Source: an uncultured Gemmatimonadaceae bacterium | GTDB lineage: Bacteria > Gemmatimonadota > Gemmatimonadetes > Longimicrobiales > Gaopeijiaceae | Direction: 5' to 3' | Assembly: GCA_964409525.1 (NCBI GenBank) | Contig: CAYPDV010000002.1 | Span: 4,047 to 64,048 of the forward strand | DNA length: 60,002 nucleotides | In this document: piece by piece, positions 4,150-23,834 of the stretch | Position numbering within the stretch: position 1 is the first letter of the stretch | Layout: every line of letters starts with the position of its first letter | Made by a program: the position numbers and the translations under genes | The notes under the pieces: generated by a model | The model's input: only the letters and a program-made list of their open reading frames with translations | What the model was told of the DNA's origin: nothing | Database searches by the model: none

Positions 4150-4451
4150 CACCGGTGGCGTCCGACGCGGGAGACGCCGGTGGCGGGAGCCCGGCATCGT
4201 GCGAGCCCACCGACCACGGTCCGGGGCACTGCGTGGTGTGCACCGACGAGGGCCGGGTGGGGCGCGTCCTCGAGATCGTCGACGCACGCTCTGCGAGGGT
4301 GCGCTTCGACGACGGCGACGAGGTGGTCGCCCTCGATCTCGTGGACGGGGCGGAGGTCGGAGTGGATCTCGTCGTCCACGGGGGGTTCGCGATCGCCTCG
4401 CTGGCGGGCGATGCAGGCGCCCTGCGCTCCCGCAGGACCCGCCGTGGCTGA
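4146..4451 (+). CDS. Second HypC/HupF-like chaperone
   Basis: The C-terminal 70 aa resemble HypC (CTDEGRVGRVLEIVD...VDLVVHGGFAIASL). The long ORF starts with an ATGA overlap at 4146. An in-frame GTG at 4236 would give the functional M-C N-terminus (MCTDEGRV...), so the true start may be 4236. Confidence 0.7.
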   Translation: MTPVASDAGDAGGGSPASCEPTDHGPGHCVVCTDEGRVGRVLEIVDARSARVRFDDGDEVVALDLVDGAEVGVDLVVHGGFAIASLAGDAGALRSRRTRRG

Positions 4452-8883: not shown

Positions 8884-9210
8884 GTGACCCCCTTCGAGGT
8901 CCCCGAGCTCTTCACCCGCTGGGAGTTCTGGTACGCGGTGGGAGGGGCGGTGGTCGTCGTCGCCGCGACCCTCCTCGTCGCGATCGTGCTCGTGGCGCGA
9001 AGCATCGACCGCGAGGCCCGACGGGCCCTGGAGGCGGTCCGGCGGATCCGCGGGAACACCGACGCGATCTGGGAGCTCGAGCCCGTCCTCCGCGACGTGG
9101 AAGCCGTCCATGGCCACGCCCGTGCGGTCGCCGAGGCGACCGACGGCCTGGCCAGGACCGTCCACGGGTCTCTCGGGGGCGCGGCGGCAGGATCGGAGGC
9201 GGAGCGATGA
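8884..9210 (+). CDS. Small single-pass membrane protein 1 of 5 between the hydrogenase subunit genes
   Basis: 108 aa. GTG start preceded by GAGGAGGA. One N-terminal hydrophobic helix (WYAVGGAVVVVAATLLVAIVLVA), then an Arg/Ala/Glu-rich helical tail. Stop overlaps the next start (ATGA). Confidence 0.7.
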   Translation: MTPFEVPELFTRWEFWYAVGGAVVVVAATLLVAIVLVARSIDREARRALEAVRRIRGNTDAIWELEPVLRDVEAVHGHARAVAEATDGLARTVHGSLGGAAAGSEAER

Positions 9211-9545
9211 CGGCCTGGATCGCGTCGATGGACGCCGAGACCCTCTGGTGGATCAGCCTCGGGGTCGGAGCGGTGGTGGCCGGTGTCGTCGCCCTCCTCC
9301 TCGCCTGGATCGTGCGCTCGGCCGACGCCATCCGTCGCACCGTGGCGGAGATATGGGTGCAGGGCCCCTACGTCGCGAACAACACCGCCCACCTGGACCT
9401 GCTCCGCCGCATCGGCGTCGCGGGAGACCGTGCCGTGCGGGAGGTGGGCCGGGCGAGCGACGCGGTGGGCCGCCTCCGGGAGCACGCGGCCGGATGCCCC
9501 GGCTGCCCCTGGTGCGTGACCGGCTGGGAGGGAGGGAGACGATGA
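9207..9545 (+). CDS. Small single-pass membrane protein 2 of 5, C-terminal CPGCPWC motif
   Basis: 112 aa. TM helix WWISLGVGAVVAGVVALLLAWIV, a helical tail, and a C-terminal GCPGCPWCVTGW. ATGA overlaps on both sides. Confidence 0.7.
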   Translation: MTAWIASMDAETLWWISLGVGAVVAGVVALLLAWIVRSADAIRRTVAEIWVQGPYVANNTAHLDLLRRIGVAGDRAVREVGRASDAVGRLREHAAGCPGCPWCVTGWEGGRR

Positions 9546-9868
9546 CGCTCCTCACGGTGCTCACCATCGTGCTCGTCCTCCTCCTGGTGGCGATCCTCGT
9601 GGTCGGCCTGCTCCGTATCATCGGCCTCCTCGAGGCGATCGGGGGCGGGCAGATCAGCTACATGGGCGAGAACATGGGCGACCGGATGAGCGGTCTCGCC
9701 AAGATCCGCTGGGGCCTCCGGGCCATCGAGCGACAGACGGGCTCCATCGGGCCCTCGACCCAGCAGGTGGACGGAGTGCTGGAGCGGATGGACGGCGGTC
9801 TGGCGGAGGTGGAGGAGGGGATGGACGCCCTCCTCTCCCACCTCGAGGCGCAGGGGGCGGGCCGATGA
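9542..9868 (+). CDS. Small single-pass membrane protein 3 of 5
   Basis: 108 aa from the in-frame ATG at 9542 of ORF 9110..9868. MTLLTVLTIVLVLLLVAILVVGLLRIIGLL TM helix, then a helical tail. ATGA overlaps on both sides. Confidence 0.7.
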   Translation: MTLLTVLTIVLVLLLVAILVVGLLRIIGLLEAIGGGQISYMGENMGDRMSGLAKIRWGLRAIERQTGSIGPSTQQVDGVLERMDGGLAEVEEGMDALLSHLEAQGAGR

Positions 9869-10230
9869 GCGTGCGCCTGACCGACTCGACGGCCGTCCTC
9901 GCCCTCTGGTGGATCGCCCTCGGACTGACGGTCCTCGTGATCGTCCCCCTCACGATCTATCTCCTGCATCGCACGCTGCGAGCGTCCCGCCAGATCCGGC
10001 GGCTCACGCACGAGGCGCTCGCGGCGGGCGGCGGGATCGCCGACCACGTGGGCTCGCTGGCCGCCCTGCGCGGCACCGTCGAGAAGGCGCGCGTGCTGCC
10101 GGACCACGGATCCCGGCTGGAGGAGCGGGCGGCTCGGCTCGAGGGGGTCCTCGCCGGGCGAAGGGGCGACGCCTCCGCCGAGGGCCCGGGGAGCCCGCCG
10201 GCCGGTCCCGCGTCAGGAGCGCTGCCATGA
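9865..10230 (+). CDS. Small single-pass membrane protein 4 of 5
   Basis: 121 aa. TM helix AVLALWWIALGLTVLVIVPLTIYLL, then a helical Arg/Ala-rich tail. ATGA overlaps on both sides. Confidence 0.7.
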   Translation: MSVRLTDSTAVLALWWIALGLTVLVIVPLTIYLLHRTLRASRQIRRLTHEALAAGGGIADHVGSLAALRGTVEKARVLPDHGSRLEERAARLEGVLAGRRGDASAEGPGSPPAGPASGALP

Positions 10231-10490
10231 TCCTCTACTGGTCGACCCTGGCGGTGATCGGGGCCGTGGTCCTGGTGCTCGCCGGCTACCTGATCGCCAT
10301 CGCGTGGACCCTCTGGATGGCGCGCGTCCACGTCCGGGACCTCGCCGACGGCCTGGAGCGGGTGGCGGAGCGCACCGACGGCGTCGACGTACCCGTGGCG
10401 GAGCTCCGGGACGTGATGTCCCGGACCGAGTCGTCCTTCGCGGCGGTCCGGAAGCACCTCGCCGCCGCCGCCACCACCTTCGAGCGCTGA
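10227..10490 (+). CDS. Small single-pass membrane protein 5 of 5
   Basis: 87 aa from the in-frame ATG at 10227 of ORF 9909..10490. MILYWSTLAVIGAVVLVLAGYLIAIAWTLW TM helix plus a helical tail. ATGA overlap with the previous ORF. Confidence 0.7.
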   Translation: MILYWSTLAVIGAVVLVLAGYLIAIAWTLWMARVHVRDLADGLERVAERTDGVDVPVAELRDVMSRTESSFAAVRKHLAAAATTFER

Positions 10491-10517: not shown

Positions 10518-12419
10518 ATGTGCTTCAAGAACCTTCCGATCGACTTCGACGAGAACGGCACCGCCACCCTCCGGGAGGCGATTCCGGATCCGTACACCCA
10601 GAAGGAGATCCGGCACAGCGCACCGAAGCAGCTCGACCGGGACCAGATCGAGGAGCTCCTGGCGAAGAACGGCTACATCGAAGCGAAGGACTTCGATCCG
10701 GTGACCCGCGTCGCCGGGGCCCTCGCCTTCCACACCGTCTGCGACCTCGAGAAGGGGGAGGTGCTCGAGGCCCGCTCCATGGGCACCCTCTTCCGGGGCT
10801 ACGAGATCATCGCCATGGGGCGGGACCCGCGGGACGCCATCTACATCACGAGCCGCGCATGCGGGGTCTGCGGCGGAGTGCACTCCACGTGCTCGGCGAT
10901 GGCGATCGAGATGGCCTTCGGGATCTCGCCACCCCCGCTGGGCATCGTGATCCGCAACATGGCGCTGGCCCTCGAGTTCCTCTACGACCACCCGCTCCAC
11001 CTCTTCCTGCTCGCCGGCCCCGACTACTCGGAGAAGGTCGTCCGGCAGACGAATCCGTCGTACTGGGACCGCGCGCAGGGGTGGTCGTGTCCCTCCTCGG
11101 AGCTCCACGGCTTCGACACCATGGCCGAGCTGATGACGGAGATGAATCCGCTCACCGGCAGCCTCTACCTCGAGGCGCTGCACATGACGCGGGTCACCCG
11201 GGAGGCCTACGCCCTCATCTGCGGCAAGTACCCGCACCCCCAGACCATCGTCCCCGGGGGGATGAGCACCACGGTCGACCCGACCGTGATGAACGAGGTC
11301 TACAACCGGCTCCGGAAGTTCTTCGACTACTCGCAGAAGGTGGTGGGGATCTGGGACGACCTCACCGAGTTCTTCTACGACATGGAGCCCCGGCAGCGGG
11401 AGGTCGGATCGCGGTCGAGGAACCTCGTCGACACCGGCATCTTCGACCACCACGAGGCGTACGACGCGAAGTACGAGAACGCCGGGACGTGGGGCCGGCG
11501 CCGCTGGCTCACGCCGGGCGTGATCGTCGACGGTGAGCTGGTGACCACCGACCTCCACCAGATCAACATGGGGGTCGAAGAGTTCGTGGAGCACTCCTTC
11601 TACGAGGAGTGGGGCTCGGAGCGTCATCCCACCGACTCCCTGGGCAACCCGCTGAGCCGCTACCATCCGTGGAACCAGGAGACCCGCCCGAAGCCGACCG
11701 GCCAGAACTGGCGGGAGAAGTACTCCTGGGCGAAGTCGCCCCGGTGGGACCGCCAGTCCATGGAGGCGGGCTCCTACGCCCGCCTCTGGACGACCGCGCT
11801 GGCGCAGGAGCACCCGGAGAGCCGGTACCTGGAGGCCACCGGGCACTCCCTCCGGATGCGGGTTCCCCGGGGCTCGCTTCCGGAGAGGGAGCTCGAATGG
11901 CACGTCCCCGAGAGCTGGAACGCCTTCGAGCGGAACCGGGCCCGGGCCTACTGCATCCCGGAGACCGCGCTGATCGCCCTGGCCAACTGGGAGATCGGCA
12001 TGGACCTGATGAAGCGCGGCGAGACGAAGGTGTCCACCCCCTTCGAGGTCCCGAAGAAGGGGCGGCAGGTGGGGGTCGGCTTCTGGGGGGCCGGCCGGGG
12101 CTGGCTCACGCACCACCTGGAGCTCCAGGACGGCAAGATCGCGAACTACCAGATCGTCACACCCTCCACCTGGAACGCCTCGCCGCAGGATCCGTGGGGA
12201 AACCCCGGCCCCTACGAGGAGGCCGTCCTCAACACGCCGATCCTGGAGGAGCGGGAGGAGAACGGGAGCGGGGGCGGCTCCTTCCGCGGAGTCGACATCC
12301 TGCGGACCATCCGGAGCTTCGATCCGTGCATGCCGTGCACCACGCACATGCACGTCGACGGCACGGACCGCGTGGTCACCACCGAGGTCAACACCTGTGC
12401 GTGCGGGGTGGAGGATTGA
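10518..12419 (+). CDS. [NiFe]-hydrogenase large (catalytic) subunit, group 1h/1l-like
   Basis: 633 aa. N-terminal DPVTRVAG. L1 motif TSRACGVCGGVHS (Cys codons at 10859 and 10868). C-terminal L2 motif SFDPCMPCTTH (Cys codons at 12327 and 12336), followed by a 23-aa tail (MHVDGTDRVVTTEVNTCACGVED) of the kind removed by the maturation endopeptidase. Confidence 0.95.
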   Translation: MCFKNLPIDFDENGTATLREAIPDPYTQKEIRHSAPKQLDRDQIEELLAKNGYIEAKDFDPVTRVAGALAFHTVCDLEKGEVLEARSMGTLFRGYEIIAMGRDPRDAIYITSRACGVCGGVHSTCSAMAIEMAFGISPPPLGIVIRNMALALEFLYDHPLHLFLLAGPDYSEKVVRQTNPSYWDRAQGWSCPSSELHGFDTMAELMTEMNPLTGSLYLEALHMTRVTREAYALICGKYPHPQTIVPGGMSTTVDPTVMNEVYNRLRKFFDYSQKVVGIWDDLTEFFYDMEPRQREVGSRSRNLVDTGIFDHHEAYDAKYENAGTWGRRRWLTPGVIVDGELVTTDLHQINMGVEEFVEHSFYEEWGSERHPTDSLGNPLSRYHPWNQETRPKPTGQNWREKYSWAKSPRWDRQSMEAGSYARLWTTALAQEHPESRYLEATGHSLRMRVPRGSLPERELEWHVPESWNAFERNRARAYCIPETALIALANWEIGMDLMKRGETKVSTPFEVPKKGRQVGVGFWGAGRGWLTHHLELQDGKIANYQIVTPSTWNASPQDPWGNPGPYEEAVLNTPILEEREENGSGGGSFRGVDILRTIRSFDPCMPCTTHMHVDGTDRVVTTEVNTCACGVED

Positions 12420-12444: not shown

Positions 12445-13080
12445 GTGAGACCGCTCCGGGTGGATCCGGCGAACGCCGCCGGACCCCGCGTCCTGGTGGG
12501 CGGCGTCGGCTACTCCTTCCTCCGCGACTTCTCGGTGGGCCCGGTGCTCTCCGGTGAGCTCGTGGAGGAGTCGTGGCCCGCCGGGGTGGTGGTGGAGGAC
12601 CTCCACTACGGACCCGTGGCCGTCGCGCAGCGCCTCATGGAGGAGAGCCCCTCCTTCGATCGGGTCGTCGTGTTCGGGGCGGTCCGGCGCGGGCGTCCGG
12701 CCGGCACCGTCCACGCCTACCGGTGGAGCGGAGAGCTCCCCGACGAGGAGGAGCTCCAGGCCCGGGTGTCGGAGGCGGTGACCGGCGTGGTGGGCCTGGA
12801 CAACCTCGTCCTCGTCACGGCGGCTCTGGACACGCTTCCCGGCGAGGTGGCCGTGGTGGAGGTCGAGCCCGCGGTGGAGGAGGCGGGCGAGGAGTTCAGC
12901 CCGGCGGTCGCGGAGTCCCTCGAGCGGATCCGCGCCCGGGTGCGGGAGGCCGCCGGGACGGGGTTCCACCGGTTGCCGGTGGAGCCCCTCGCCGGGGACG
13001 CGGGGGAGACCGCGCCTCGCCGCGGCCCGGGTTCGAGCGCGGAGTCCGAGACGGAGACCGTGGGCGAGGTGGGGGCATGA
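12445..13080 (+). CDS. Degenerate hydrogenase-maturation-protease-like protein (probable pseudo-protease or chaperone)
   Basis: Layout RVLVGGVGYSFLRDFSVGPVL ... FDRVVVFGAVRRG ... parallels the HybD/HupD blocks (vLvlGiGN..DDg.G ... d.vilvDA). The acidic/His metal-ligand positions are replaced. Preferred start is GTG 12445 after GAAGGGGGG. The track ORF starts at 12397, overlapping the large subunit. Confidence 0.6.
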   Translation: MRPLRVDPANAAGPRVLVGGVGYSFLRDFSVGPVLSGELVEESWPAGVVVEDLHYGPVAVAQRLMEESPSFDRVVVFGAVRRGRPAGTVHAYRWSGELPDEEELQARVSEAVTGVVGLDNLVLVTAALDTLPGEVAVVEVEPAVEEAGEEFSPAVAESLERIRARVREAAGTGFHRLPVEPLAGDAGETAPRRGPGSSAESETETVGEVGA

Positions 13081-13805
13081 CCTCTCCCGATCTCGAGGAG
13101 GTGGTGGCCCGCCTGGACCGCATGGTGGCCGAGGCCGAGGCGCACGACGACCCCCGGATCCGGGAGTGGGCGTCGGGAATGGTCGAGTCGCTGGCCCGGC
13201 TCCACGGGGAGGGCCTCCGGCGCCTCACGGCGCTCCTTGTCGGGCATGGCGAGCTCCTCCGGCAGGCTCTGGAGGACCCGGTGGTGGCGAACCTCCTCCT
13301 GCTTCACGACGCCACGATCGGAGAGGAGGGGAGGAGCGTGGTGGAGGTGACGGAGCGGACCTCGGGGGCAGGGGAGGGTGCGGGGCCGGCCTCCTTCCGG
13401 GTCCGGATGGACGACGGGGCGGCGGCCTCCTTCGTGCCGCTCGAGAAGGTGCAGCGACTCGATCGGAAGCTGAGGAACGGGACGGCGGGGCCGGCCCCCT
13501 CCCGTAGGGTGGCGGCAGGACACGTCGCCGAGGTGGAGCCGGGCTCCCTGCGGGGGATCCTCGAGGACGGCGCCGCGATCCTTCTCGCGCGGGTGGGCGA
13601 TTCCCTACGGGCGTACCGCAACGCCTGTCCCGGCTCCATCCTCCCGCTCCACCTCGGGGCCCGGGACGGCGACGTGGTGCGCTGCCCCTGGCACGGGTGC
13701 CGCTTCCACCTGGACGACGGGTCCGCGGTCGAGGGACAGGGGCCGGGCCTGGACCCCCTTCCCGTGGAGGTGAAGGGCGACGAGGTCTGGGTGGTGGTTC
13801 GATGA
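13077..13805 (+). CDS. Hydrogenase-associated protein with C-terminal Rieske-like [2Fe-2S] domain (HhyE/HylE-like)
   Basis: 242 aa from the in-frame ATG 13077 of ORF 12573..13805 (ATGA overlap). The C-terminus has CPGSILPLH ...17 aa... CPWHGCRFHLDDG. The second Rieske box is canonical and the first lacks the usual C-x-H histidine. The N-terminal about 80 aa are a helical domain. Confidence 0.75.
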   Translation: MTSPDLEEVVARLDRMVAEAEAHDDPRIREWASGMVESLARLHGEGLRRLTALLVGHGELLRQALEDPVVANLLLLHDATIGEEGRSVVEVTERTSGAGEGAGPASFRVRMDDGAAASFVPLEKVQRLDRKLRNGTAGPAPSRRVAAGHVAEVEPGSLRGILEDGAAILLARVGDSLRAYRNACPGSILPLHLGARDGDVVRCPWHGCRFHLDDGSAVEGQGPGLDPLPVEVKGDEVWVVVR

Positions 13806-14311
13806 GCCCCCCCGCAGCGGGCCCGGTCTCCGCGACCCGCACGCTCGTCGCGGGAATGGGAAACGTCCTGGAGGAGGACGACGGCTTCGGCGTGCGAGTG
13901 CTCGAGGCTCTGGCCCACGAGGAGCTCCCGGAAGGCGTGCGGCTGACGGAGGTCGGCACCGGAGGGATCCACCTCGTCCAGGACCTGATGGACGGCTACG
14001 ACGCGCTGATCCTGGTGGACGCGGTGGACCGGGAGGGCGAGCCGGGAACCGTCTATACGCTCCGGCCGGAGGTGCCGGATCTGGACGACTTCGACGAGGA
14101 CGAGCGCGGCCGGTTCCTGGCCGACACGCACTACACCGTGCCGGCCAAGGTCCTGGTGATGGCACAGGCCTTGGGAATCCTTCCCGAACGGCTCTACATT
14201 GTGGGGTGCCAGCCGGGAAGGACGGAGCTCGGGCTCGACCTGACCGAGAGGGTCGACCGGGCGGTGGGGCGGGGGGTCGCCGAGGTCCGGCGGCTGCTGG
14301 AGTGCCATTGA
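13802..14311 (+). CDS. [NiFe]-hydrogenase maturation endopeptidase (HybD/HupD family)
   Basis: 169 aa from ATG 13802 (ATGA overlap). TLVAGMGNVLEEDDGFGVRV, ALILVDAVDREGEPGTVY and LADTHYTVPAKVL are the canonical blocks, including the Glu/Asp, Asp and His metal ligands. Confidence 0.9.
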   Translation: MSPPAAGPVSATRTLVAGMGNVLEEDDGFGVRVLEALAHEELPEGVRLTEVGTGGIHLVQDLMDGYDALILVDAVDREGEPGTVYTLRPEVPDLDDFDEDERGRFLADTHYTVPAKVLVMAQALGILPERLYIVGCQPGRTELGLDLTERVDRAVGRGVAEVRRLLECH

Positions 14312-14369: not shown

Positions 14370-14963
14370 ATGAACCCGACAGGCACGCCGAGCGCTCCGG
14401 AAACACCGGAGCCCGGAAGCACTCGGGGCCGATCCGGGGGAGGAAGGGGCTGGACCGCCTTCCGGGTGGCGCTGGCCCTCTCCGCCCTCTGGCTCACGGG
14501 GTACGTCGCCTTCCGGTACTCCGTCTTCAACGCGCCGGACCACGGCACGGCGTACTTCTACATCTTCCCCGCCTCCCTGGTGCTGGCGGCGGTGGCCCTG
14601 GTGCTCGCCTTCCGTCCCTTCCTCCTCTCGCGGATGCCGGGGATCGGCGGGACGGCCCTCCGGGGCACCCTCACCGCCTACGGGGCCGTCTGGATGGCGA
14701 GCGGTGTCGCCTGCACCCTCTCCCTCCTGGAGGGGATCGCGATCGCCCCCCTCGGAGGGAGCATCGACATGATCCACATGGTCAGCGATCACGTCTTCCT
14801 CCCCCTCGCGGTCGCGACGCTGGCCTGGGCGCCGGGATGGCTCGCCGCGAGGCTCGGGGCGAGCTCCGCGGTGCGCGAGGCCGCCAGAAGCGCGGGACGG
14901 CCGGGCGCCCGGATGCCCGGCTCCCCGGTCGCCGGGAAGACGGGAGGCTCGATCCGTGGCTGA
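14370..14963 (+). CDS. Hypothetical integral membrane protein (about 4 TM), hydrogenase-cluster associated
   Basis: 197 aa. RBS GGAGGAG before the ATG. Four hydrophobic segments, with His residues in APDHG and DMIHMVSDH. No recognisable family. Confidence 0.6.
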   Translation: MNPTGTPSAPETPEPGSTRGRSGGGRGWTAFRVALALSALWLTGYVAFRYSVFNAPDHGTAYFYIFPASLVLAAVALVLAFRPFLLSRMPGIGGTALRGTLTAYGAVWMASGVACTLSLLEGIAIAPLGGSIDMIHMVSDHVFLPLAVATLAWAPGWLAARLGASSAVREAARSAGRPGARMPGSPVAGKTGGSIRG

Positions 14964-15381
14964 GGGGATCGCCGGGGGGGCTCCCGACGTGCCTGACGGA
15001 ACCTCGGGCTCGGACGCCGGGCTCCGCCGCCGGGACGAGGTCCTCCAGATCCTCTTCTGGATGCGGGGGGAGGGGCTGGGTGACAGCACCACTCCGGCGG
15101 ACCTCCTGCCCCTCCTGGGCGAGGGAGCGGCCGAGCTGGAGACGACGCTCCACGCCCTGCGGGAGATGGGCCTCGTCGAGCGTACGGAGGACGAGCGGTA
15201 CCGGCTGACGGACAGGGGGGTCGCCGAGGGCGGCCGCCGGTTCGCGGACGAGTTCAGCGGCCTCACCGCCCAGGCTCACGGCGAGTGCGCCGATCCGGAC
15301 TGCGACTGTCACGACGATCCCGCCGCCGCGATCGACTGTCTGGCCCGACGCCACGGCCACGACGCCCACACCCCCGCCTGA
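14956..15381 (+). CDS. Winged-helix (MarR/DtxR-like fold) protein with Cys/His-rich C-terminal tail
   Basis: 141 aa. GTG start overlaps the previous stop by 8 nt. LQILFWMRGEGLGDS...LHALREMGLVERTEDERYRLTDRG looks like a wHTH. The tail HGECADPDCDCHDDP...RRHGHDAH is metal-ligand-rich. Confidence 0.6.
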   Translation: MAEGIAGGAPDVPDGTSGSDAGLRRRDEVLQILFWMRGEGLGDSTTPADLLPLLGEGAAELETTLHALREMGLVERTEDERYRLTDRGVAEGGRRFADEFSGLTAQAHGECADPDCDCHDDPAAAIDCLARRHGHDAHTPA

Positions 15382-15411
15382 CCCGGAATCCCCCGAAGGG
15401 AGAGTACGAGC

Positions 15412-16194
15412 ATGCACGTGGCCATCGCGGGAAAGGGAGGGACCGGAAAGACCACCCTGTCGGCCATCCTCTGCCGGACGCTGGCCCGACAGGGGCGGGG
15501 CGTCCTGGCCGTGGACGCCGACTCGAATCCGAACCTGGCGGCGGTGCTCGGCTTCGAGCGCGTCGCCGATCTGCCCGAAGGGCTCCCCCGGAGCCTCCTC
15601 GAGCGGGTCGAGGAGCCGGACGGGACCACCCGGCTGGCCCTGACCCGGCCGGTGGGCGAGGTGCTGGAGGAGTACGGCCGCACGGGCCCGGACGGGGTGC
15701 GGCTGATGGTGATGGAGGCCGTCGGCCACGGGGGCGGCGGGTGAATGTGCTCCGCCCACGCCGCGGTCCGCGGCTTCGTCGGAGAGATCGTCTCGGCGCC
15801 GGAGGCCGTCGGTGACGTCGTGCTCGACATGGAGGCCGGGCTCGAGCACCTGAGCCGGGGCACCGGGCGGCACGTGGACGCCGTCGTCGCCGTCCTCGAG
15901 CCCTACTACCGCGCCCTGGAGACGGGCCGGCGGGTCGTCGAGCTCGCGCGCGAGCTCGGGATCCGCCATACCTTCGGAGTCGCGAACAAGGTGCGGGGAG
16001 GCCCCGACCGCGAGGCGCTGGAGGAGTTCGCGGAGCGCCACGAGCTCACCCTGCTGGGCGAGGTCCCCTGGGACGAGACCCTCCTGGAGGCGGAGCGGGC
16101 CGGCAGCGCACCGGTGGACCACGCGCCGGACGCGCCGGCCGTGCGGGCGGTGCGGCAGGTGACGGAGCGCCTGCAGGAGCGGATCGAGGCGTGA
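15412..16194 (+). CDS. CooC-type (MinD/ParA-class) Ni-insertion ATPase with one in-frame TGA at the CxC metal site: candidate selenoprotein, otherwise a split gene or pseudogene
   Basis: ORFs 15412..15744 and 15745..16194 are in the same frame, separated only by TGA 15742-15744. Deviant Walker A AIAGKGGTGKTT. VLDMEAGLEHLSRGT and VANKVR blocks align with the CODH accessory protein CooC. The TGA falls where CooC has the first Cys of G-G-x-x-C-x-C; here the sequence is GGGG-[TGA]-M-C-SAH. Confidence 0.8.
15750..15784 (+). other. SECIS-like extended hairpin immediately downstream of the in-frame UGA
   Basis: Lower stem CUCCG (15750-15754) pairs with CGGAG (15780-15784). A 5x5 internal loop follows. 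Upper stem GCCGCG (15760-15765) pairs with CGCGGC (15769-15774). The apical sequence GGUC lies 24-27 nt from the U of the UGA. Confidence 0.45.
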
Positions 16195-16263
16195 GCGACC
16201 GGATCGAGGCGTGAGGTGCCGGCCCGCGCGGACCGAGACGAGACCCGAAACACGGAGCGAGGA

Positions 16264-17115
16264 ATGAGCGACGTACGCACGGCGACCGGAGCGTCCCTCG
16301 GGGGGGCGGGCATCCTGGCGGTCTGTTCCTGCGGAGCGGCCACCGGCACGGTGGGCCTCCTCGGCGTGGCGGGGATCGCCGCGACGAACCCCGTGGTCCA
16401 CCCCTTCTTCCTCGGAGTCGGGGCCGTGCTCCTCGTCTGGGGGCTCTGGCAGATCAGCCGGAAGGCCGCCGTCCTCGCCGCCGGGGGGCTCGCCCTCATC
16501 GCCGGCGGCGCGCTCCTGGCCCCCGCGTCGGTGATGACGCAGGCCGGGATCCCGCATCCACCCGGGCACATGGCCGGATTCGCGCTCTACGTCCTCGGCG
16601 CGGCGGCGATCGTGCTCGGCTTCCTCCGGGCGTACCGTCCGCCCGAAGGAAGCAGAGGCGGATACACCGCGGCCGCGGGCATGGGGCTCGCCGCCGGGTG
16701 CAGCTGTTGCCTGGTGACCGGCTCGGTGGCCGGCATCCTCGGCACCTTCGGCCTCGGGATGCCCTGGATCTACTCCGAGCCCGTCATCTTCACGACGGCG
16801 ATGGGGCTCGTGACCTATGGCCTCGTGCGTCTCGGGGGTTGGCGCGCCGCATGGCCCGTCCCGGTCGGAGCCCTCGTCCTCTGGGGTGGCCCCCGGGTGC
16901 TCCGCGCCCTCGCGGAGGAGATCCCCTTCCACGGCGTGAACCTCCGCTTCATCCCGGCCTATCTGGTGACGCTCGCCGGCATCGGGCTCGTCCTCTGGTC
17001 CTTTCCGCGGGCCTATCGTGCCGCACGGGCCGCGCGTGAAGCCGCCCCACCGGCCGAGCCACCCGCGCCGCCGGCGGCGCCCCCGGTCCTCGAGGGAGCG
17101 GGCACGGCCGTCTGA
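16264..17115 (+). CDS. Integral membrane protein with intramembrane CSC / CSCC motifs (putative thiophilic-metal permease)
   Basis: 283 aa from ATG 16264 (RBS GGAGCGAGGA); the track ORF starts at 16216. About 8 TM segments with an internal duplication. AGILAVCSCGAATGTVGLLGV and GLAAGCSCCLVTGSVAGILG recall MerT/MerC-style Cys pairs inside TM helices. The C-terminal tail is Pro/Ala-rich. Confidence 0.65.
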   Translation: MSDVRTATGASLGGAGILAVCSCGAATGTVGLLGVAGIAATNPVVHPFFLGVGAVLLVWGLWQISRKAAVLAAGGLALIAGGALLAPASVMTQAGIPHPPGHMAGFALYVLGAAAIVLGFLRAYRPPEGSRGGYTAAAGMGLAAGCSCCLVTGSVAGILGTFGLGMPWIYSEPVIFTTAMGLVTYGLVRLGGWRAAWPVPVGALVLWGGPRVLRALAEEIPFHGVNLRFIPAYLVTLAGIGLVLWSFPRAYRAARAAREAAPPAEPPAPPAAPPVLEGAGTAV

Positions 17116-17212: not shown

Positions 17213-18124
17213 GTGCCCCTCCTCCGCGCGGACGATCTCACCAAGCGGTACCCCGGCGGGGTCGTCGCCCTCGACCGTCTCACCCTCGAGCTCGAGCCGG
17301 GGCTGGTCGGCCTCGTCGGTGCGAACGGGGCGGGAAAGAGCACCTTCCTCAAGATCCTCCTCGGGCTCCTCGCCCCCGACGGGGGCAGCGTCGAGGTGCT
17401 CGGCCGGGACCCCACCGCCGAGCCGATCGGCGTCCGCGAGCGCACGGGCTACCTGCCCGAGCACGACTGCCTTCCCACGGATCAGAGCGCGGCGGACTTC
17501 GTGGCGCACATGGCGCGGATCTCCGGGCTGCCCCGGAGCGCCGCCCGGGAGCGCTCCGCCGAGATGCTCCGCCACGTCGGCCTGTACGAGGCGCGCTACC
17601 GGATGATGGACGGCTACTCGACCGGCATGAAGCAGCGGGTGAAGCTCGCACAGGCGCTGGTCCACGATCCGGACCTCCTCCTCCTCGACGAGCCCACCAA
17701 CGGGCTCGATCCGGCCGGGCGCGACGAGATGCTCGACCTGATCCGGAGGACGGGCGAGGAGATGGGGATCAGCGTCGTCGTCTGCTCCCACCTGCTCGGC
17801 GAGATCCAGCGCGTGTGCGACCACCTCGTGGCGATCGACGCGGGACGGATCGTGCACTCGGCCTCGATCGGCTCCTTCACCCGGGAGACGGCCGTGCTCA
17901 CGGTCGAGGTGGACGAGGGCGCCGATCGCCTGGCGCGGCGCCTCGCCGACGACGGTGTGGAGGTGGAAGGAGACGGTCCCGGTGTGCTGCGGATGGCCCT
18001 CGACGACGACGGTCTGTACGACCTCGTGCGGGACGCCGCCGCCGATCTCGGGATCCCCCTGGTCCGGCTGCAGCGGAGACGCCACCGGCTCGAAGACCTC
18101 TTCCGGTCAAGCGAAATTGCCTGA
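17213..18124 (+). CDS. ABC transporter ATP-binding protein
   Basis: 303 aa. Walker A GANGAGKST, signature YSTGMKQR and Walker B LLLLDEP. Confidence 0.9.
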   Translation: MPLLRADDLTKRYPGGVVALDRLTLELEPGLVGLVGANGAGKSTFLKILLGLLAPDGGSVEVLGRDPTAEPIGVRERTGYLPEHDCLPTDQSAADFVAHMARISGLPRSAARERSAEMLRHVGLYEARYRMMDGYSTGMKQRVKLAQALVHDPDLLLLDEPTNGLDPAGRDEMLDLIRRTGEEMGISVVVCSHLLGEIQRVCDHLVAIDAGRIVHSASIGSFTRETAVLTVEVDEGADRLARRLADDGVEVEGDGPGVLRMALDDDGLYDLVRDAAADLGIPLVRLQRRRHRLEDLFRSSEIA

Positions 18125-19019
18125 CCTGACATCTCCAGCGGAGGGCACGGCCGGCACCCTCTACGACCTCGGCTACCAGCGCTACGACGGCGAGCGGCTG
18201 GGAAGGGGCTACGCCGTCCGCTCTCTCTTCCTGCACGGCCTCGGCGTCGTGTTCGCCGTGGGCCGTGGCCTCCGCTCCCGCCTCGTCCCGCTCCTCCTGG
18301 GGGCGGTGATCGTGCTCCCGGCCGTGATCCAGTCGGCGGTCGCGGCGTACAGCGGCGGAGCGCTCGAGCTCGTCCGCTACGAGAACTACTTCCTCAGCAC
18401 GGCGGTCGTCTTCGCGCTCTTCTGCGCGGCCCAGGCCCCGGAGCTCGTGAGTGCCGACCTGCGCTCGAAGTCCCTCGTCCTCTACCTGGCCCGCGCGCTC
18501 CGGAGAGACGACTACGTCCTGGCGCGCGTCGGCTCGCTGGCGGCGGCGGTCTTCCTCCTCGCCCTCGTGCCGCAGCTCGTCCTCTTCGCGGGACGGGTCT
18601 TCGTCGCGGCCGAGCCGTGGCCGGCGCTCAGGAGCGAGCTCCACGTGCTGCCCCCGATCCTCGCCTCGTCCACGGTGGTCGCGCTCATGCTGGCGACGAT
18701 CGCGGTGGCCATCGCCTCCTTCACCGAGCGGAGGGGGATCGCGGCGGGGGCCGTCATCGGCTACTTCCTCCTGGCCGGCGCGTTCGTCGACCTCCTACAG
18801 GGAACCCCCGGCGGGGAGAGCGGGGCCTGGCTGATCCTCGCCAGCCCCCTCGTCGTCCTCGACGGCTTCATCCACTGGGCGTTCGGCGCGACGCCCGACC
18901 CCCGGGGGCTGGTGGGGAGCCTGGACCTGCCGGGAAGCGTGTACGCGGCGGCGGCCGCCGGCTACGTGGCCTTCTGGGGAGCCGTGCTCCGGATCCGGTA
19001 CCGGAGGCTCGGCGGATGA
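18117..19019 (+). CDS. ABC-2-type transporter permease
   Basis: In-frame TTG 18117 of ORF 17955..19019 (start uncertain). About 6 hydrophobic segments. The stop overlaps the next ATG (ATGA). Confidence 0.65.
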   Translation: MPDLTSPAEGTAGTLYDLGYQRYDGERLGRGYAVRSLFLHGLGVVFAVGRGLRSRLVPLLLGAVIVLPAVIQSAVAAYSGGALELVRYENYFLSTAVVFALFCAAQAPELVSADLRSKSLVLYLARALRRDDYVLARVGSLAAAVFLLALVPQLVLFAGRVFVAAEPWPALRSELHVLPPILASSTVVALMLATIAVAIASFTERRGIAAGAVIGYFLLAGAFVDLLQGTPGGESGAWLILASPLVVLDGFIHWAFGATPDPRGLVGSLDLPGSVYAAAAAGYVAFWGAVLRIRYRRLGG

Positions 19020-19933
19020 GCACCCCCGGTGTGACGCTCCGCGGCGCGTCGAAGTGGTACGGCAACGTGGTGGCCGTGAACGACGTCTCCTTCCGGGTCG
19101 GCCCCGGCGTCACCGGCCTCCTCGGTCCGAACGGGGCCGGCAAGACGACGATCCTCCACCTGGTCGCCGGCTTCCTGCGCCCCTCGTCGGGCTCGGTCGA
19201 GGTCGACGGGGCGGTCCCGTGGAGGAACCCGGAGCTCTACCGGCGGATCGGCGTCGTACCCGAGCGCGAGGACGTCTACCCCTTCCTCACCGGCCGGGAG
19301 TTCGTGCGGGCGAACGCAGATCTCCACGGGCTGGAGGACCCGGAAGACGCGACGGAGCGCGCGCTCGAGCAGGTCGAGCTGACGGCGGACGCGGATCGGC
19401 GGACCGGCACCTACTCCAAGGGGATGCGCCAGCGGATCAAGGTGGCCGCGGCGCTCGTCCACGACCCGGAGGTGCTGCTGCTCGACGAGCCCTTCAACGG
19501 CATGGACCCGCGCCAGCGGCTCCAGATGATCGACCTCCTCCGCCGGAGCGCCGAGCGGGGGCGGGTGATCCTCTTCAGCACGCACATCCTCGAGGAGCTG
19601 CACCGGCTCGCGAGCCAGGTCCTGGTGGTCGTCGCGGGCCGGTTGGCGGCCTCCGGCGATTTCCGGGAGGTCCGCCGGCTCATGACCGACCGGCCCCACA
19701 CCTTCACCCTCCGCTCCACCGACGACCGGCGCCTCGCCTCCGCCCTGGTCGCCGAGGAGTCGGTTTCGGGGGTGGAGTTCGACCGGGACCACGTGGTGGT
19801 GCGCGCCTCGGACCGGGGCGCCTTCACCCGGGCGCTCCCGCGGATCGCCCGCGAGCGGGGGGTGGGCCTGAGGGAGCTGGTGCCCGCCGACGAGTCGCTC
19901 GAGAGCGTCTTCGGCTACCTGGTGGAGCGATGA
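19016..19933 (+). CDS. ABC transporter ATP-binding protein (second copy)
   Basis: 305 aa from the in-frame ATG 19016. Walker A GPNGAGKTT, signature YSKGMRQR and Walker B LLLLDEP. Confidence 0.9.
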   Translation: MSTPGVTLRGASKWYGNVVAVNDVSFRVGPGVTGLLGPNGAGKTTILHLVAGFLRPSSGSVEVDGAVPWRNPELYRRIGVVPEREDVYPFLTGREFVRANADLHGLEDPEDATERALEQVELTADADRRTGTYSKGMRQRIKVAAALVHDPEVLLLDEPFNGMDPRQRLQMIDLLRRSAERGRVILFSTHILEELHRLASQVLVVVAGRLAASGDFREVRRLMTDRPHTFTLRSTDDRRLASALVAEESVSGVEFDRDHVVVRASDRGAFTRALPRIARERGVGLRELVPADESLESVFGYLVER

Positions 19934-20700
19934 GCGGGAAGCGGGTCGGCCCCGGGGCCGACCGGGCCGTCGCCCGGATCACCTGGCGGCTCCTCCTCTC
20001 GCGCCGGCGCTGGCTCGCGATCGTGGTCGCGAGCGGTCTGCCCCCCCTCGTCGCGTGGGTCTTCCTGTCCCAGACCGGCGAGACCGGAGCCGGCACGCTG
20101 GAGATCTTCTACGGGGGACTCTCGAACGCGATGGTGCTGACCGTGCTCCTCCCGCTGATGGGGCTGGTGCACGGGACGGCCGCCTTCGGCCTCGAGATCG
20201 ACGACGGGACCCTCCGCTACGTGCTCGCGAAGCCCCTCGGTCGGTGGCGGATCGTGCTGGTGAAGTGGGCGGTCGCCACGGCCGTCACGGTCGTCTCGGT
20301 CCTGCCGGGCGTCGTGATCGCCGGATGGATCCTCCTCGGCGATCCGACCCACGTCCTGGTGCGCGGCCTCTCGGCCGCCGTCCTGGTGGGGGGCGCCGTC
20401 TACGGCGCCCTCTTCCTCGCGTTCGGGCTGCTCACGAGGCGGGCCCTCCTCCTCGGCCTCCTCTACGTCCTGGCGTGGGAGGGCGCCCTCGCGAGCCTGT
20501 TCCTCGGCGTCCGCGCCTTCAGCGTTCGGGAGTACGCCACGGCCGCCGCCCGGGCGGTCACGGCGGACGCCGTCGCGTTCGGGCAGGCCGCCGCGGTCGA
20601 GCCCGCCCACGCGGCGTGGCTCGCGCTCGGCATGCTCGCGGCCGCCCTCGCGCTCTCGATCCACCGGCTGCGCGGGCTCGAAGTGATGGAGGAGGTGTGA
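19930..20700 (+). CDS. ABC-2-type transporter permease (second copy)
   Basis: 256 aa from the in-frame ATG 19930 (ATGA overlap). Six hydrophobic segments. Confidence 0.7.
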   Translation: MSGKRVGPGADRAVARITWRLLLSRRRWLAIVVASGLPPLVAWVFLSQTGETGAGTLEIFYGGLSNAMVLTVLLPLMGLVHGTAAFGLEIDDGTLRYVLAKPLGRWRIVLVKWAVATAVTVVSVLPGVVIAGWILLGDPTHVLVRGLSAAVLVGGAVYGALFLAFGLLTRRALLLGLLYVLAWEGALASLFLGVRAFSVREYATAAARAVTADAVAFGQAAAVEPAHAAWLALGMLAAALALSIHRLRGLEVMEEV

Positions 20701-21056
20701 GCGGCTGCTGCGGCCTCGAGGAGCAGTTCGTCGTGTCGGCGTCGGCGGAGCTCGCGGCCGACACCTGGGCCGCCGTCCACCCCCTCGACCGGTGGAGCGT
20801 CCGCACCGTGATCTCGGCGCAGAACCTCGCCCGCCGCCTCCGTGGAAGCGACTTCCGGGTGTACGTGCATCCGCCGCCCAGCATCGAGACCCTCCTCGGC
20901 GAACGCGGATTCCGCCCCGCCGCCAGCGACCGGACCTTCGTGTGGGAGGTGGCGGTATTCCGGCGGGCGGCCGCGGCGGCCGGCCCGGCCGACCGCCGAC
21001 CGGTCGATCCCCCCGCACCCGAGCCCGGCCCCTCCACCCGCCCGCCCACGCCATGA
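20697..21056 (+). CDS. Hypothetical small protein
   Basis: In-frame GTG 20697 overlaps the upstream stop, and its own stop overlaps the yhbY ATG. There is no recognisable motif. The only support is its position in the coupled gene chain. Confidence 0.35.
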   Translation: MSGCCGLEEQFVVSASAELAADTWAAVHPLDRWSVRTVISAQNLARRLRGSDFRVYVHPPPSIETLLGERGFRPAASDRTFVWEVAVFRRAAAAAGPADRRPVDPPAPEPGPSTRPPTP

Positions 21057-21355
21057 CCCGCCTCACCTCGAAGCAGCGCGCACACCTACGCTCCCTCGCC
21101 CACCACCTGAAGCCGATCGTCCAGATCGGATCGGACGGCGTGAGCGAGCCCCTCCTCGAGACCGTGGAGGAGGCGTTCCGCACCCGGGAGCTGCTCAAGG
21201 TGAAGGTCCTCGACGGTGCCCCCGAGGATACGGAGGAGGCCGCCGACGCCCTGCGGGACGGCCTGGAGGGGGTGCAGGTGGTGCAGACGATCGGACGGAC
21301 GGTCGTGCTCTACCGTCCGTTCCCGGAGGAGCCGGAGATCCGGCTACCGGGATGA
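21053..21355 (+). CDS. yhbY: YhbY/CRM-domain RNA-binding (ribosome assembly) protein
   Basis: 100 aa. LTSKQRAHLRSLAHHLKPIVQIGSDGVSEPLLETVEEAFRTRELLKVKV...IGRTVVLYR matches the CRS1/YhbY domain pattern. Confidence 0.85.
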   Translation: MTRLTSKQRAHLRSLAHHLKPIVQIGSDGVSEPLLETVEEAFRTRELLKVKVLDGAPEDTEEAADALRDGLEGVQVVQTIGRTVVLYRPFPEEPEIRLPG

Positions 21356-21555
21356 ATCCGGTTGCGGGCTCCGGGCGGATCGCCAGCGAGATGAAGGAGG
21401 ACCCGGAGCTCCGGCAGATCCCGGTCGTGGTCCTCACGACTTCCGAGGCCGAGGCCGACGTGCTCGACGCCTATCAGAAGCAGGCGAGCTCGTACATCGT
21501 GAAGCCGGTCGACTTCGACTTCCGGCTCACGTTCGTGCGGCTACCGTGCAAGTGA
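21352..21555 (+). pseudogene. Remnant of a CheY-like receiver domain (C-terminal half only)
   Basis: 67-aa ORF. EMKEDPELRQIPVVVLTTSEAEADVLDAYQKQASSYIVKPVDFD corresponds to the alpha3-beta4-alpha4-beta5 part of a REC domain. The N-terminal acidic pocket and phospho-acceptor Asp are absent. Confidence 0.6.
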
Positions 21556-23834
21556 TGGATCTCCGCGACCTCTGCATCCTGCTCGCGGAGGACGATCCAG
21601 CCGACGTCGGGCTCGTCGAGGAGCACCTGTCGGAGTCTCCCGGAACCCCGCCCGAGCTCCTCTGCGTCGGCACGCTCGACGAGGCGCGGGAGCGGGCGGT
21701 CGACCGGAAGATCGACGTCATCCTGCTCGATCTGAATCTGCCGGACTCGAGCGGACTCGAGACGCTCGATCGCATGCTCGAGGTCGCTCCGGCGATCCCC
21801 GTGATCGTTCTCACCGGGCTCCGCGACGAGGAGGTCGCGTGGGAGGCGGTGGAGCGGGGCGCCCAGGACTTCCTGCTCAAGGGCGAGCTCACGGCCCCGA
21901 TGGTCTGGCGCTCGATCCGGTACGCGGTCGAGCGGACGGGGGCGGCCGCGGAGCTCCGGCGCCGGGAGGAGCTCTACAGGGCGCTCGTGGAGGGCGTCAG
22001 CGACGTGGTGAAGATCGTCGATCCGGACGGGATCGTCGTCTACGAGAGTCCCTCCATCGAAGGGGTACTCGGATTCCGTCCCGAGGAGCGGATCGGGGAG
22101 TCGTACCTGGACCTGGTCCACCCGGATGACCTCGAGGCCGCCCGCGCGACGCTGAAGGAGGTGGTAGCCCGCCCGGGGAGCCGCTCCACTACCGAGCTCC
22201 GCATCCGCCGCAAGGACGGGGACTGGTGCACCATGGAGCTCCAGGCCCGGAACGCCCTCCGGAACCGGGCGGTCGGCGGAATCGTCCTGACCCTCCACGA
22301 CGTCACCGAGCGCAAGCGCTCGGAGATGGCGGTGCGCGCGGCGGAGGAGCGCTTCCGGGCTCTGGTCGAGCAGTCGCTCATCGGCATCTACATCGTCGAC
22401 GAGGATGGACGCCTCTCCTACGTGAACCCCCGCTGGGTCGAGATCCTGGGGTATCCGCCCGAGGAGGCGGTCGGAATGCGGGTGAGCGACCTCGTCGCTC
22501 CGGAGGACCGCGCCGCCGTGGACCGTCGCATACGCGAGCGCTTCGAGGGGGCCGCCGAGTCCGCGTACTACACGCAGGAGATGTTCACCCGGGACGGCGA
22601 CGCCATCCAGGTCGAGGTCCACGGGCGAAGAGTGGACCTCGACGGCCGACCCGCGATCCTCGGCACCCTCGAGGACGTCACGGACAAGAAGCGGCTGGAG
22701 CGGGAGTTTCTACAGGCGCAGAAGATGGAGGCCATCGGGCGGCTGGCCGGCGGGATCGCCCACGACTTCAACAACCTCCTGACGGCGATCGGCTCGAGCG
22801 CCGAGATCCTGCGCCAGGAGCTCGCCTCGGAAGGCGAGCTGAGAGAAGACGCCGACGCGATCCTCGCCGCGGTCACTCGCGCCGGCACGCTGACCCGCCA
22901 GCTCCTCGTCTTCAGCCGGAAGGACGTGTCGAGGACGCTCGTCGTGGAGGTGGACGCCATCCTCCGGGACTTCGAGAGCCTCCTCCGCCGGGTCATCGGC
23001 TCGGACATCCGCCTCGAGATCGTGGCGGGCGCGGGCGAGACGTGCGTCGAAGCCGACCCCTCGCACCTCGAGCAGGTGATGATGAACCTGGTGGTGAACG
23101 CGCGGGACGCCGTCACCGGGGGCGGGACCATCCGGATCGAGACCACCGACGATCCGGCCCGGGTCGAGCCGTGGGCACCGGACCTGGTGGACACCGGCGG
23201 CCGCTCCGTCTATCTGAGCGTCTCCGACGACGGCGAGGGGATCCCCGACGACGTGTTGCCGCGCGTCTTCGATCCGTTCTTCACCACGAAGGGGCCCGGG
23301 AAGGGAACCGGCCTCGGGCTGAGCACGGTCTACGGCATCGTCTCGCGGGCCGGTGGAGAGATCGACATCTCCTCCGAGTCCGGCGTCGGCACCCGGGTCA
23401 CGGTCCGGCTTCCCGCCACCGAGCAGGCGAAAGGCGACGATCACGACGAGGGTGCGCCGGCGCTCGGCGGGACCGAGCGGATCCTCCTGGTCGAGGACGA
23501 CCCCGCCGTGCGCAGCGTGGTGCGCCGGATCCTCGAGCGGTCGGGCTACGACGTGCTCGACGCCGGAGACGCCAGGGCGGCGGTGGCGCTGTTCGAGGAG
23601 GAAGACGGCTCCGTCGACCTCCTCCTCACCGACGTGGTGATGCCGGACGTCTACGGGCCGGAGCTCGCCGACCGGCTCCGGGAGACGAATCCGGAGCTGC
23701 GGGTCCTCTTCACCTCCGGCTACACCGAGGAGGAGGTGCTGGAGCGGGTCGGGACGATCGGCACGGAGCTGCTGGAGAAGCCCTTCCACCAGGAGACGCT
23801 CCTGAGGAAGGTGCGGAGAGCCCTGGAAGACTGA
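21555..23834 (+). CDS. Hybrid sensor histidine kinase (REC-PAS-PAS-HisKA-HATPase-REC)
   Basis: 759 aa from ATG 21555 in ORF 21216..23834. N-terminal REC ([10 protein letters not shown]...ILLDLNLPD). Two PAS modules (VVKIVDPDG..., IYIVDEDGR...). H-box [10 protein letters not shown]-boxes DDGEGI and GTGLGLS. C-terminal REC ([10 protein letters not shown]...[10 protein letters not shown]). Confidence 0.92.

Follow-up and report, generated by a model that had tools for sequence, protein, structure and literature searches.

A CooC-type ATPase and a Cys/His-rich winged-helix protein as a candidate nickel-insertion module of group 1l [NiFe] hydrogenases lacking HypA and HypB

HypA and HypB are regarded as standard components of the [NiFe]-hydrogenase maturation machinery. 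Insertion of nickel is immediately followed by the action of an endopeptidase on the large subunit (PMC12134894). In Thermococcus kodakarensis, the GTPase HypB is replaced by a MinD/Mrp-type ATPase (PMC7055735; PMC12134894). CooC-1 of Carboxydothermus hydrogenoformans binds one nickel per dimer by way of Cys112 and Cys114 (PMC6006190). A CooC-type nickel-insertion ATPase is listed among the genes of group 1m hydrogenase clusters by Ray et al. 2022 (PMC9561532), and CbiA and PadR genes are named in the supplement legend to the cluster diagrams of the preprint by Ortiz et al. 2020. In the accessible portions of the published work, these two studies included, we found no statement that HypA and HypB are absent from these hydrogenases, and no report of the ATPase being paired with a Cys/His winged-helix protein, of an endopeptidase fusion, or of a selenocysteine codon. 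Here, we analyze a 60,002-nucleotide stretch of contig CAYPDV010000002.1 from an uncultured Gemmatimonadaceae bacterium, hereafter the window, which carries a [NiFe]-hydrogenase gene cluster. Two adjacent genes near the 3′ end of this cluster encode a winged-helix protein with a Cys/His-rich tail and a CooC-type ATPase. We describe their gene content, synteny, complementary distribution, fusions, motif conservation and recoding signals and, judging from sequence, consider it probable that the two proteins make up a dedicated maturation module that replaces HypA/HypB nickel insertion in group 1l hydrogenases.

The window has a G+C content of 72 % and lies on contig 2 of a soil metagenome bin (G000; 2.70 Mb, 83.6 % complete, 6 % contamination). 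The bin belongs to the same phylum as a Gemmatimonadales bin, one genome having turned up in the samples drawn around both, as G169 and as G316. Every gene between positions 938 and 17115 is on the + strand. The original prediction had assigned to this cluster hypF, two copies of hypC, hypD, hypE and the endopeptidase, and Pfam agrees, the second hypC being a weak match. It had also placed three genes at the 3′ end of the cluster, and these are indeed open reading frames (ORFs) on the same + strand; their products are, as described there, a winged-helix protein with a tail ending HGECADPDCDCH...HGHDAH (the model is MarR/ZitR/IdeR-like), an ATPase whose best solved relative is CooC1, and a membrane protein with intramembrane Cys pairs, here CSC and CSCC motifs within predicted helices. 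A published hallmark of group 1l [NiFe] hydrogenases is a set of five membrane ORFs separating the two subunit genes (bioRxiv 10.1101/2020.08.06.239558); because five such ORFs lie between the small- and large-subunit genes in the window, the cluster is of the group 1l type. The same layout is common to loci L016–L018, L139, L220–L222, L225 and L226.

The absence of hypA and hypB from the 60 kb, on which the original prediction was built, extends to the whole bin: nothing in the 2.70-Mb assembly, the window included, matches the HypA profile (PF01155) or the HypB profile (TIGR00073) at E ≤ 0.001. Since the bin is only 83.6 % complete, we used the window large subunit to search a sample of 401 genomes of its phylum, the genomes compared coming from one class. 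Six genomes (G316, G373, G405, G426, G485 and G560; 95–98 % complete) encode a large subunit 65–67 % identical to that of the window and constitute the group 1l set; eleven others (91–100 % complete; large subunit 42–46 % identical) constitute a 1h-like set. The HypA profile and the HypB profile each have matches in 0/6 of the group 1l genomes, while the same searches detect HypA in 11/11 and HypB in 11/11 of the 1h-like genomes, in most of which hypA and hypB lie on the contig of the large subunit. The prediction would have been undercut by hypA or hypB elsewhere; neither was found in this genome or in six nearly complete genomes with the same hydrogenase type. The hypCDEF genes are retained where HypA and HypB are missing.

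The two candidate genes are distributed in the opposite manner. The CooC-like ATPase is present in 6/6 group 1l genomes versus 1/11 1h-like genomes, and the winged-helix protein in 6/6 versus 0/11. The winged-helix gene is directly upstream of the ATPase gene in all six, and in five of the six the ATPase gene is 2–3 kb from the large-subunit gene on the same contig; four of the six ATPase genes contain a TGA codon, discussed below. A close CooC-like gene occurs in 2/394 of the other genomes of the 401-genome sample, both times at the start of a contig in a fragmented assembly, and a 151-genome phylum sample centred on G061 returned two matches only. Twelve further genomes that carry the ATPase, from several phyla, follow the same trend: 9/12 are without HypA and 10/12 are without HypB above the family cut-off. 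The three HypA-positive genomes among these twelve, which belong to other phyla, carry both systems together with additional large-subunit genes; their hypA is 1–8 kb from a different large-subunit gene and not at the CooC-linked locus, with hypB beside hypA in the two genomes where hypB passes the cut-off. Searches of G000, G316, G405, G485 and G560 detected neither nickel CO dehydrogenase (CODH; TIGR01702) nor UreG (TIGR00101). The ATPase is thus left without another obvious nickel client in these five genomes, and there is no urease GTPase that could substitute for HypB.

The ATPase belongs to the MinD/SIMIBI class, with a match to Pfam CbiA (E 1e-18; also to ParA) and an N-terminal Walker A motif of the deviant GKGGxGK[ST] type (GKGGTGKT, residues 7–14) that is invariant in an alignment of 29 homologues. 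Its best solved relative is CooC1 of C. hydrogenoformans (3kje; E 1.7e-30), with all other solved structures at 1e-9 or worse. The putative metal motif reads G-U-M-C-S-A-H, where U denotes the residue encoded by the TGA; U111-M-C113 aligns with C112-Y-C114 of 3kje. Among the 120 closest full-length homologues, all 120 possess Cys at both C-x-C columns, and the motif G-C-x-C-x-x-H is invariant. An additional invariant His at +5 and an Arg at +9 are missing from CODH-type CooC sequences, which sets the protein apart as a distinct subfamily. It is not a member of the HypB G3E GTPase family, TIGR00073 matching nothing in G000 and the six group 1l genomes, and the link to CODH that would be expected of a CooC is not seen: the gene resides within hydrogenase clusters and TIGR01702 is found in 0/5 genomes. 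Two homologues of the ATPase, P0121 and P0086 (384 and 357 residues), have an XRE-type helix-turn-helix (HTH) domain fused at the N-terminus, and the linker of P0121 bears the motif C-A-C-E-G-C-R-C-H (C-x-C-x2-C-x-C-H). This N-terminal HTH was considered as a member of the winged-helix family and rejected, as hhalign detected no domain homology and only a short, low-probability match at the Cys motif.

The original prediction had not remarked that the ATPase frame is interrupted by a TGA at the column of CooC1 Cys112; gene callers break the gene into two pieces of 110 and 149 residues. The codon is covered without difference by contigs from two runs, the probable source run and one belonging to an independent study. 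The window genome contains selA, selB, selD and tRNA-Sec. A TGA at the same position is present in genomes of Acidobacteriota, Chloroflexota (G064, unpublished) and Acidimicrobiales, and at the same column in at least 120 metagenome contigs, with 113 distinct 60-nucleotide segments across all TGA-form loci. The reading frame stays open for 140 codons downstream in 80/80 of the contigs listed and for 100 codons upstream in 79/80. Other TGA-form genomes carry selA in four of the five tested, the fifth giving a weak 41-residue fragment match only; selA is present in 2/6 Cys-form genomes.

A hairpin resembling a selenocysteine insertion sequence (SECIS) begins 15–17 nucleotides past the UGA and has a G-U-N apical loop. 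In the 72 % G+C context, folding z-scores computed over the whole segment past the TGA did not reach significance, and an in-register stem test was used instead. Of the 113 distinct TGA forms, 104 have an in-register hairpin of at least 5 bp, and compensatory pair changes are numerous; stem length averages 6.0 bp versus 2.7 bp after synonymous codon resampling, and the median for 14 Cys forms is 2.5 bp. On this sequence evidence, the TGA almost certainly encodes selenocysteine at the position of the first putative metal ligand of the ATPase. A reasonable guess for its use is that selenocysteine resists irreversible oxidation at a solvent-exposed metal site in aerobes. We found no paper that links CooC and selenocysteine.

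Several loci depart from the common pattern. At L111 and L149, Cys-form CooC-like genes (L111:6352 and L149:7338) are in tandem with TGA-form paralogues (L111:7732 and L149:8887), and the Cys copies, unlike other Cys forms, keep a perfect 8–11 bp hairpin at the SECIS position. An Acidimicrobiales bin (G071), in which selA was not found, has a CooC-like motif G-TGA-L-TGA-C with the two TGAs two codons apart (L064:10310 and L064:10316); this gene may be a decayed copy or something odder. The CooC-like match at G426:C39:17988-18758 contains one TGA and one TAG. In the Chloroflexota bin G064, four CooC-like paralogues are located upstream of the hydrogenase small subunit (L021:2428-10236), with the TGA only in the copy nearest the hydrogenase.

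The winged-helix gene opens with a GTG that overlaps the stop codon of the upstream gene, and the true start is uncertain. In an alignment of 34 homologues, H108, C111, C116 and C118 are invariant and C128 nearly so, yielding the motif H-x2-C-x4-C-x-C...C; the tail of every homologue has four Cys and 2–7 His, with ends such as HKH, HSHS and HHHHHS. The other conserved residues are D27, E28, W35, G38, E39, F96 and F100, none of which is basic or located in the predicted recognition helix; the invariant residues of the first helix are acidic or aromatic. The AlphaFold2 model has a predicted local distance difference test score (pLDDT) of 82.7 overall and 94–98 in the core, and Foldseek aligns it to MarR, ZitR and IdeR/DtxR winged helices (E 1.6e-3 to 1e-2; template modelling score (TM) 0.40–0.48). 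A match to Pfam HTH_27 is weak (E 5.6e-4) and below the curated cut-off, and the HypA profile PF01155 gives no match. The family is acidic, with a mean isoelectric point of 4.85 over the 34 homologues and a mean net charge of -6.4 for the folded domain, -1.15 for the recognition helix and -1.1 for the wing. The basic surface with which a winged helix reads DNA is thus not seen, and a role as a DNA binder is unlikely.

At least 74 protein clusters join the winged-helix protein to the C-terminus of the HycI-type endopeptidase. We read two such fusions on their contigs (L225 and L226), and in both the fused gene stands within a group 1l cluster in place of the two separate genes. The split ATPase gene of the selenocysteine (Sec) form is directly downstream of the fusion in L225; in L226, it is on the opposite strand, upstream of the cluster. 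The fusion places the Cys/His domain at the step of nickel insertion and cleavage, and argues against a transcription-factor role. Acidic and often joined to the endopeptidase, the winged-helix protein is better read, from its sequence features, as a maturation factor than as a sensor.

Conservation beside related hydrogenases, which the original prediction had anticipated for all three genes, is borne out for the winged-helix and CooC-like genes, both found in every such genome tested; the membrane protein does not share it. The ATPase is within group 1l-type clusters at every locus with readable context, in at least five phyla: Gemmatimonadota, Acidobacteriota, Chloroflexota, Pseudomonadota (a Burkholderiaceae bin) and Actinomycetota (Acidimicrobiales). 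Of the 69 TGA-form metagenome loci that span 4 kb or more, 57 contain hydrogenase-cluster genes. Usually the endopeptidase gene comes first, followed by the winged-helix gene and then the ATPase gene, and the winged-helix gene is present in 43 loci. A scan of contigs with the ATPase alignment retrieved, among the matches listed, mostly CODH-type CooC of anaerobes and about ten hydrogenase-linked loci.

The surroundings of the module vary between lineages. In an Anaerolineae genome (L221:11409-16962), the CooC-like gene is followed just downstream by an Opp/Nik-type ABC importer, made up of two permeases, an SBP_bac_5 binding protein and a double ATPase that has an oligo_HPY domain, and a similar ATPase adjoins the CooC-like gene at L222:10790-12436; where there is no Cys-rich membrane protein, such an importer may take up nickel. 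A close relative of the window module, at L224:2608-7710, has three genes separating its winged-helix and ATPase genes from the endopeptidase gene. One is short and resembles a small-subunit gene, another is a second NiFe large-subunit gene, and the third encodes a PAS/GAF histidine kinase; they may represent an H2-sensing hydrogenase. At L226:10013-14698, genes for the large and small subunits of RuBisCO and other Calvin-cycle genes adjoin the group 1l cluster, with further CbiA-type ATPase genes downstream.

The third gene of the original prediction, coding for the Cys-rich membrane protein, has 12 homologues in a set of 5.8 billion proteins. Its motifs C22-x-C24 (nearly invariant) and C147-x-C149-C150 (invariant) are in predicted helices, together with an invariant H-P; the model has a pLDDT of 81.9, and an internal repeat is marginal (E 0.016). 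It follows the ATPase gene in only six loci besides the window, among them L139, L150, L171 and L223, where it is directly downstream, and L224, where it is two genes downstream; these include both Sec and Cys forms of the ATPase; two tandem copies appear to follow the ATPase in L224. The protein has paired intramembrane cysteines of the MerC/MerT/MerF kind; an assignment as an uptake protein of that type was not retained, since neither a profile nor a fold match was obtained and an atlas feature score of 0.83 is a lead only. From motifs and adjacency, a role as a permease for thiophilic metals is a guess.

The coordinates of the cluster and its flank are collected in Table 1. The 197-residue membrane protein encoded between the endopeptidase and winged-helix genes has a single homologue in the fetched loci (L014, from the same-family genome G001), where the order is endopeptidase, winged-helix gene, 197-residue membrane gene, ATPase. 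Downstream of the cluster, window positions 17213-23834 (+) hold the two ABC-2 pairs and a PAS-rich hybrid histidine kinase, with no link to the hydrogenase seen.

Table 1 Features of the hydrogenase cluster and its downstream flank in the window
Feature	Position	Strand	Basis or remark
hypF	938-3331	+	Pfam
hypC	3335-3607	+	Pfam
SIS-domain gene	3604-4149	+	Pfam
hypC-like (weak second hypC)	4146-4451	+	Pfam
SIS-domain gene	about 4510-5190	+	Pfam
hypD	5187-6386	+	Pfam
hypE	6383-7489	+	Pfam
[NiFe] hydrogenase small subunit	7566-8867	+	Pfam
Five small membrane ORFs	8884-10490	+	Between small- and large-subunit genes
[NiFe] hydrogenase large subunit	10518-12419	+	Pfam
Gene of unknown kind	about 12445-13080	+	
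Rieske gene	ending 13805	+	Pfam
HycI-type endopeptidase	about 13802-14311	+	Pfam
Predicted membrane protein, 197 residues, no family match	14370-14963	+	Between endopeptidase and winged-helix genes
Winged-helix protein, Cys/His tail, 141 residues, GTG start	14956-15381	+	ORF, alignment of 34 homologues, AlphaFold2 model
CooC-type (MinD/SIMIBI) ATPase, 260 residues with TGA = selenocysteine	15412-16194	+	Pfam CbiA/ParA, CooC1 match
In-frame TGA, probable selenocysteine codon, first Cys of putative CxC nickel site	15742-15744	+	Alignment to CooC1
SECIS-like hairpin	15750-15784	+	Upper stem 15760-15765/15769-15774, loop GUC; lower stem 15750-15754/15780-15784
Polytopic membrane protein, 283 residues from ATG 16264 (alternative GTG 16216)	16264-17115	+	CSC and CSCC motifs
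Two generic ABC-2 transporter pairs (ATPase + permease)	17213-20700	+	Pfam; left out of module

Taken as a whole, these data suggest a scheme for nickel insertion in which the two proteins divide the work. The ATPase would dimerize and hold Ni(II) at the interface through U/C-x-C-x-x-H, as CooC1 does with Cys112 and Cys114, and a nucleotide-driven conformational change would release the metal; the first ligand would here be a selenocysteine, its UGA being read with the aid of the downstream hairpin. The acidic winged-helix protein would bind metal with its His-Cys4 motif and His-rich end, and could be the adaptor, comparable to HypA (or to CooJ/CooT), by which nickel reaches the large-subunit precursor. 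It would act beside the endopeptidase, or fused to it, and the precursor would be cleaved once nickel is in place. The Cys-lined membrane protein would be a lineage-specific add-on, possibly a thiophilic-metal permease that feeds the module. Nickel binding, nickel transfer, the contacts between partners and transport are thus parts of the scheme that we infer from sequence, distribution and fusion. A more ambitious version, which we regard as evenly balanced between right and wrong, is that group 1l hydrogenases, and probably those of group 1m, possess a complete and previously unrecognized nickel pathway, in which a CooC-type ATPase, often with a selenolate ligand, stands in for HypB, and a winged-helix His-Cys4 protein, docked on or fused to the endopeptidase, stands in for HypA and couples insertion to proteolytic proofreading, with a Cys-lined membrane feeder added in some lineages.

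Several points weigh against replacement of HypA/HypB by this module. High nickel rescues hypA and hypB mutants of model organisms; a hydrogenase can therefore mature chaperone-free in principle, and the module could have another function. Fe-S clusters, too, can be carried by MinD-type ATPases that have cysteines at the interface, and we know of no CooC that serves a hydrogenase, CooC-type ATPases being known only as maturation factors of CODH and acetyl-CoA synthase. In Rhodospirillum rubrum, CooC, CooT and CooJ do not mature the CO-induced hydrogenase (PMC6006190). The six group 1l genomes represent five genera and the eleven others six, and as the genomes are related, few independent events stand behind the clean split; without G373, which is unpublished, the counts are 5/5. 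In a complex prediction, a naturally occurring Cys-form ATPase, taken as a dimer, and the winged-helix protein encoded next to it scored 0.54, the best of three controls scoring 0.01, and the runs agree in at least 54 % of contacts with a partner pLDDT of at least 67. The pass mark is reached by 58/80 solved complexes and 2/110 mismatched pairs, with scores of 0.60 or less including 7 of the 80 solved complexes and both passing mismatches; the prediction passed weakly and lends weak support to contact between the two proteins. The membrane protein has no family match (Pfam and NCBIfam) and no fold match (pdb and atlas), and among four high-quality group 1l genomes tested, it is absent from three, the fourth giving one weak match on another contig. 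It is an optional, lineage-specific accessory and not a core part. The non-canonical nickel supply route put forward in the original prediction is accordingly supported, by distribution and synteny, for two of the three genes. Of its sensor or metallochaperone, nucleoside triphosphatase (NTPase) insertase and permease, the first two persist as a probable maturation pair, with nickel as the likely cargo; the sensor role becomes improbable, and the permease remains a guess.

The two genes might encode maturation or assembly factors for something other than nickel: an Fe-S cluster of the small subunit or of a Rieske/NifU-like partner, or protection or assembly in air, with nickel inserted unassisted or by another factor. 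NifH and the Mrp/ApbC/NBP35 relatives of the ATPase hold Fe-S clusters at the dimer interface, NifH and Mrp profiles of Pfam and NCBIfam match the ATPase weakly, a NifU/Rieske protein is encoded just upstream in the cluster, and some CooC proteins may be folding chaperones rather than nickel donors (PMC6006190). However, the closest solved relative by a wide margin is the nickel-binding CooC1 (1.7e-30 versus 1e-9 or worse), and the match is exact at the C-x-C nickel site of CooC1 and not to a CxxC Fe-S motif. The step missing from these genomes is, moreover, exactly that of nickel, with HypA and HypB gone and hypCDEF kept, and the His-rich end of the partner is typical of nickel chaperones. 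We consider a function in Fe-S or general assembly unlikely.

A narrower alternative retains the ATPase as a chaperone and takes the winged-helix protein for a metal-sensing regulator of the hydrogenase operon, of the MarR/DtxR kind. Its fold does resemble MarR, the Zn-dependent ZitR and IdeR/DtxR at the modest TM values given above, HTH_27 matches weakly, and a PadR-family regulator is labeled in published cluster diagrams, as far as the supplement legend indicates; the acidic domain with its negative helix and wing, the want of any conserved basic residue, the recurrent endopeptidase fusion, and the restriction of the protein to genomes without HypA (six versus eleven) render this reading quite improbable. 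Least credible, and already contradicted, is the notion that hypA and hypB are merely unassembled and that the TGA marks a broken CooC pseudogene. The completeness and contamination of the bin and the splitting of the ATPase by gene callers would fit an artefact of this kind, but six genomes of 95–98 % completeness are without HypA and HypB while eleven neighbours are positive in the same search, and at least 120 contigs have the TGA at one and the same column, with open flanking frames. The hairpin that follows it is much weaker in most Cys forms, and selA is present in the window genome and in four of five other TGA-form genomes.

Group 1l hydrogenases are considered the dominant agents of atmospheric H2 uptake in the soils of deserts and polar regions. 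Were replacement of HypA/HypB by the winged-helix/ATPase pair confirmed, an environmentally dominant class of hydrogenases would do without HypA and HypB, the way in which hydrogenase gene sets are recognized in genomes would need revision, and the ‘missing’ hypAB of soil genome bins would be explained. The routine mis-annotation of the ATPase as two ‘CO dehydrogenase maturation factor’ fragments would come to an end, and the accessory genes to include when oxygen-tolerant, high-affinity hydrogenases are expressed in foreign hosts would be known. The ATPase would also represent a rare case of a selenocysteine ligand in a metal-trafficking protein and not in a redox active site.

Comparison with described systems delineates what is shared and what is new. 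With CooC1, CooC and AcsF, the insertion factors of Ni,Fe-CODH (PDB 3kje-3kji), the module ATPase shares the MinD-type deviant Walker A and the same C-x-C columns; CooC1/CooC work beside small nickel-binding helpers, among which CooJ has a His-rich tail (PMC6006190). Unlike them, the module is situated in a [NiFe]-hydrogenase cluster, with no Ni-CODH found in the five genomes tested, its ATPase has the extra His +5 and Arg +9 and often a selenocysteine as the first Cys, and its helper, a winged-helix protein, is related to neither CooJ nor CooT. The ATPase-type HypB of T. kodakarensis is also a MinD-family ATPase that takes the place of HypB in hydrogenase nickel insertion; that enzyme has a canonical HypA as its partner and showed no nickel site, whereas the module lacks HypA too and its ATPase carries the CooC-type metal motif. 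The T. kodakarensis protein is not among the solved relatives of the window ATPase at E ≤ 0.001. With HypA/HypB, the module shares the proposed step, NTP-driven nickel insertion before endopeptidase cleavage, and the pairing of a SIMIBI-class NTPase with a small Cys/His adaptor predicted to bind metal, and the two systems are mutually exclusive among the six and eleven genomes compared. There is no sequence relationship between them: the NTPase of the module is of the MinD and not the G3E type, and its adaptor is a winged-helix protein. The system thus resembles an NTPase-plus-metallochaperone module for nickel insertion that would have been built from different protein families.

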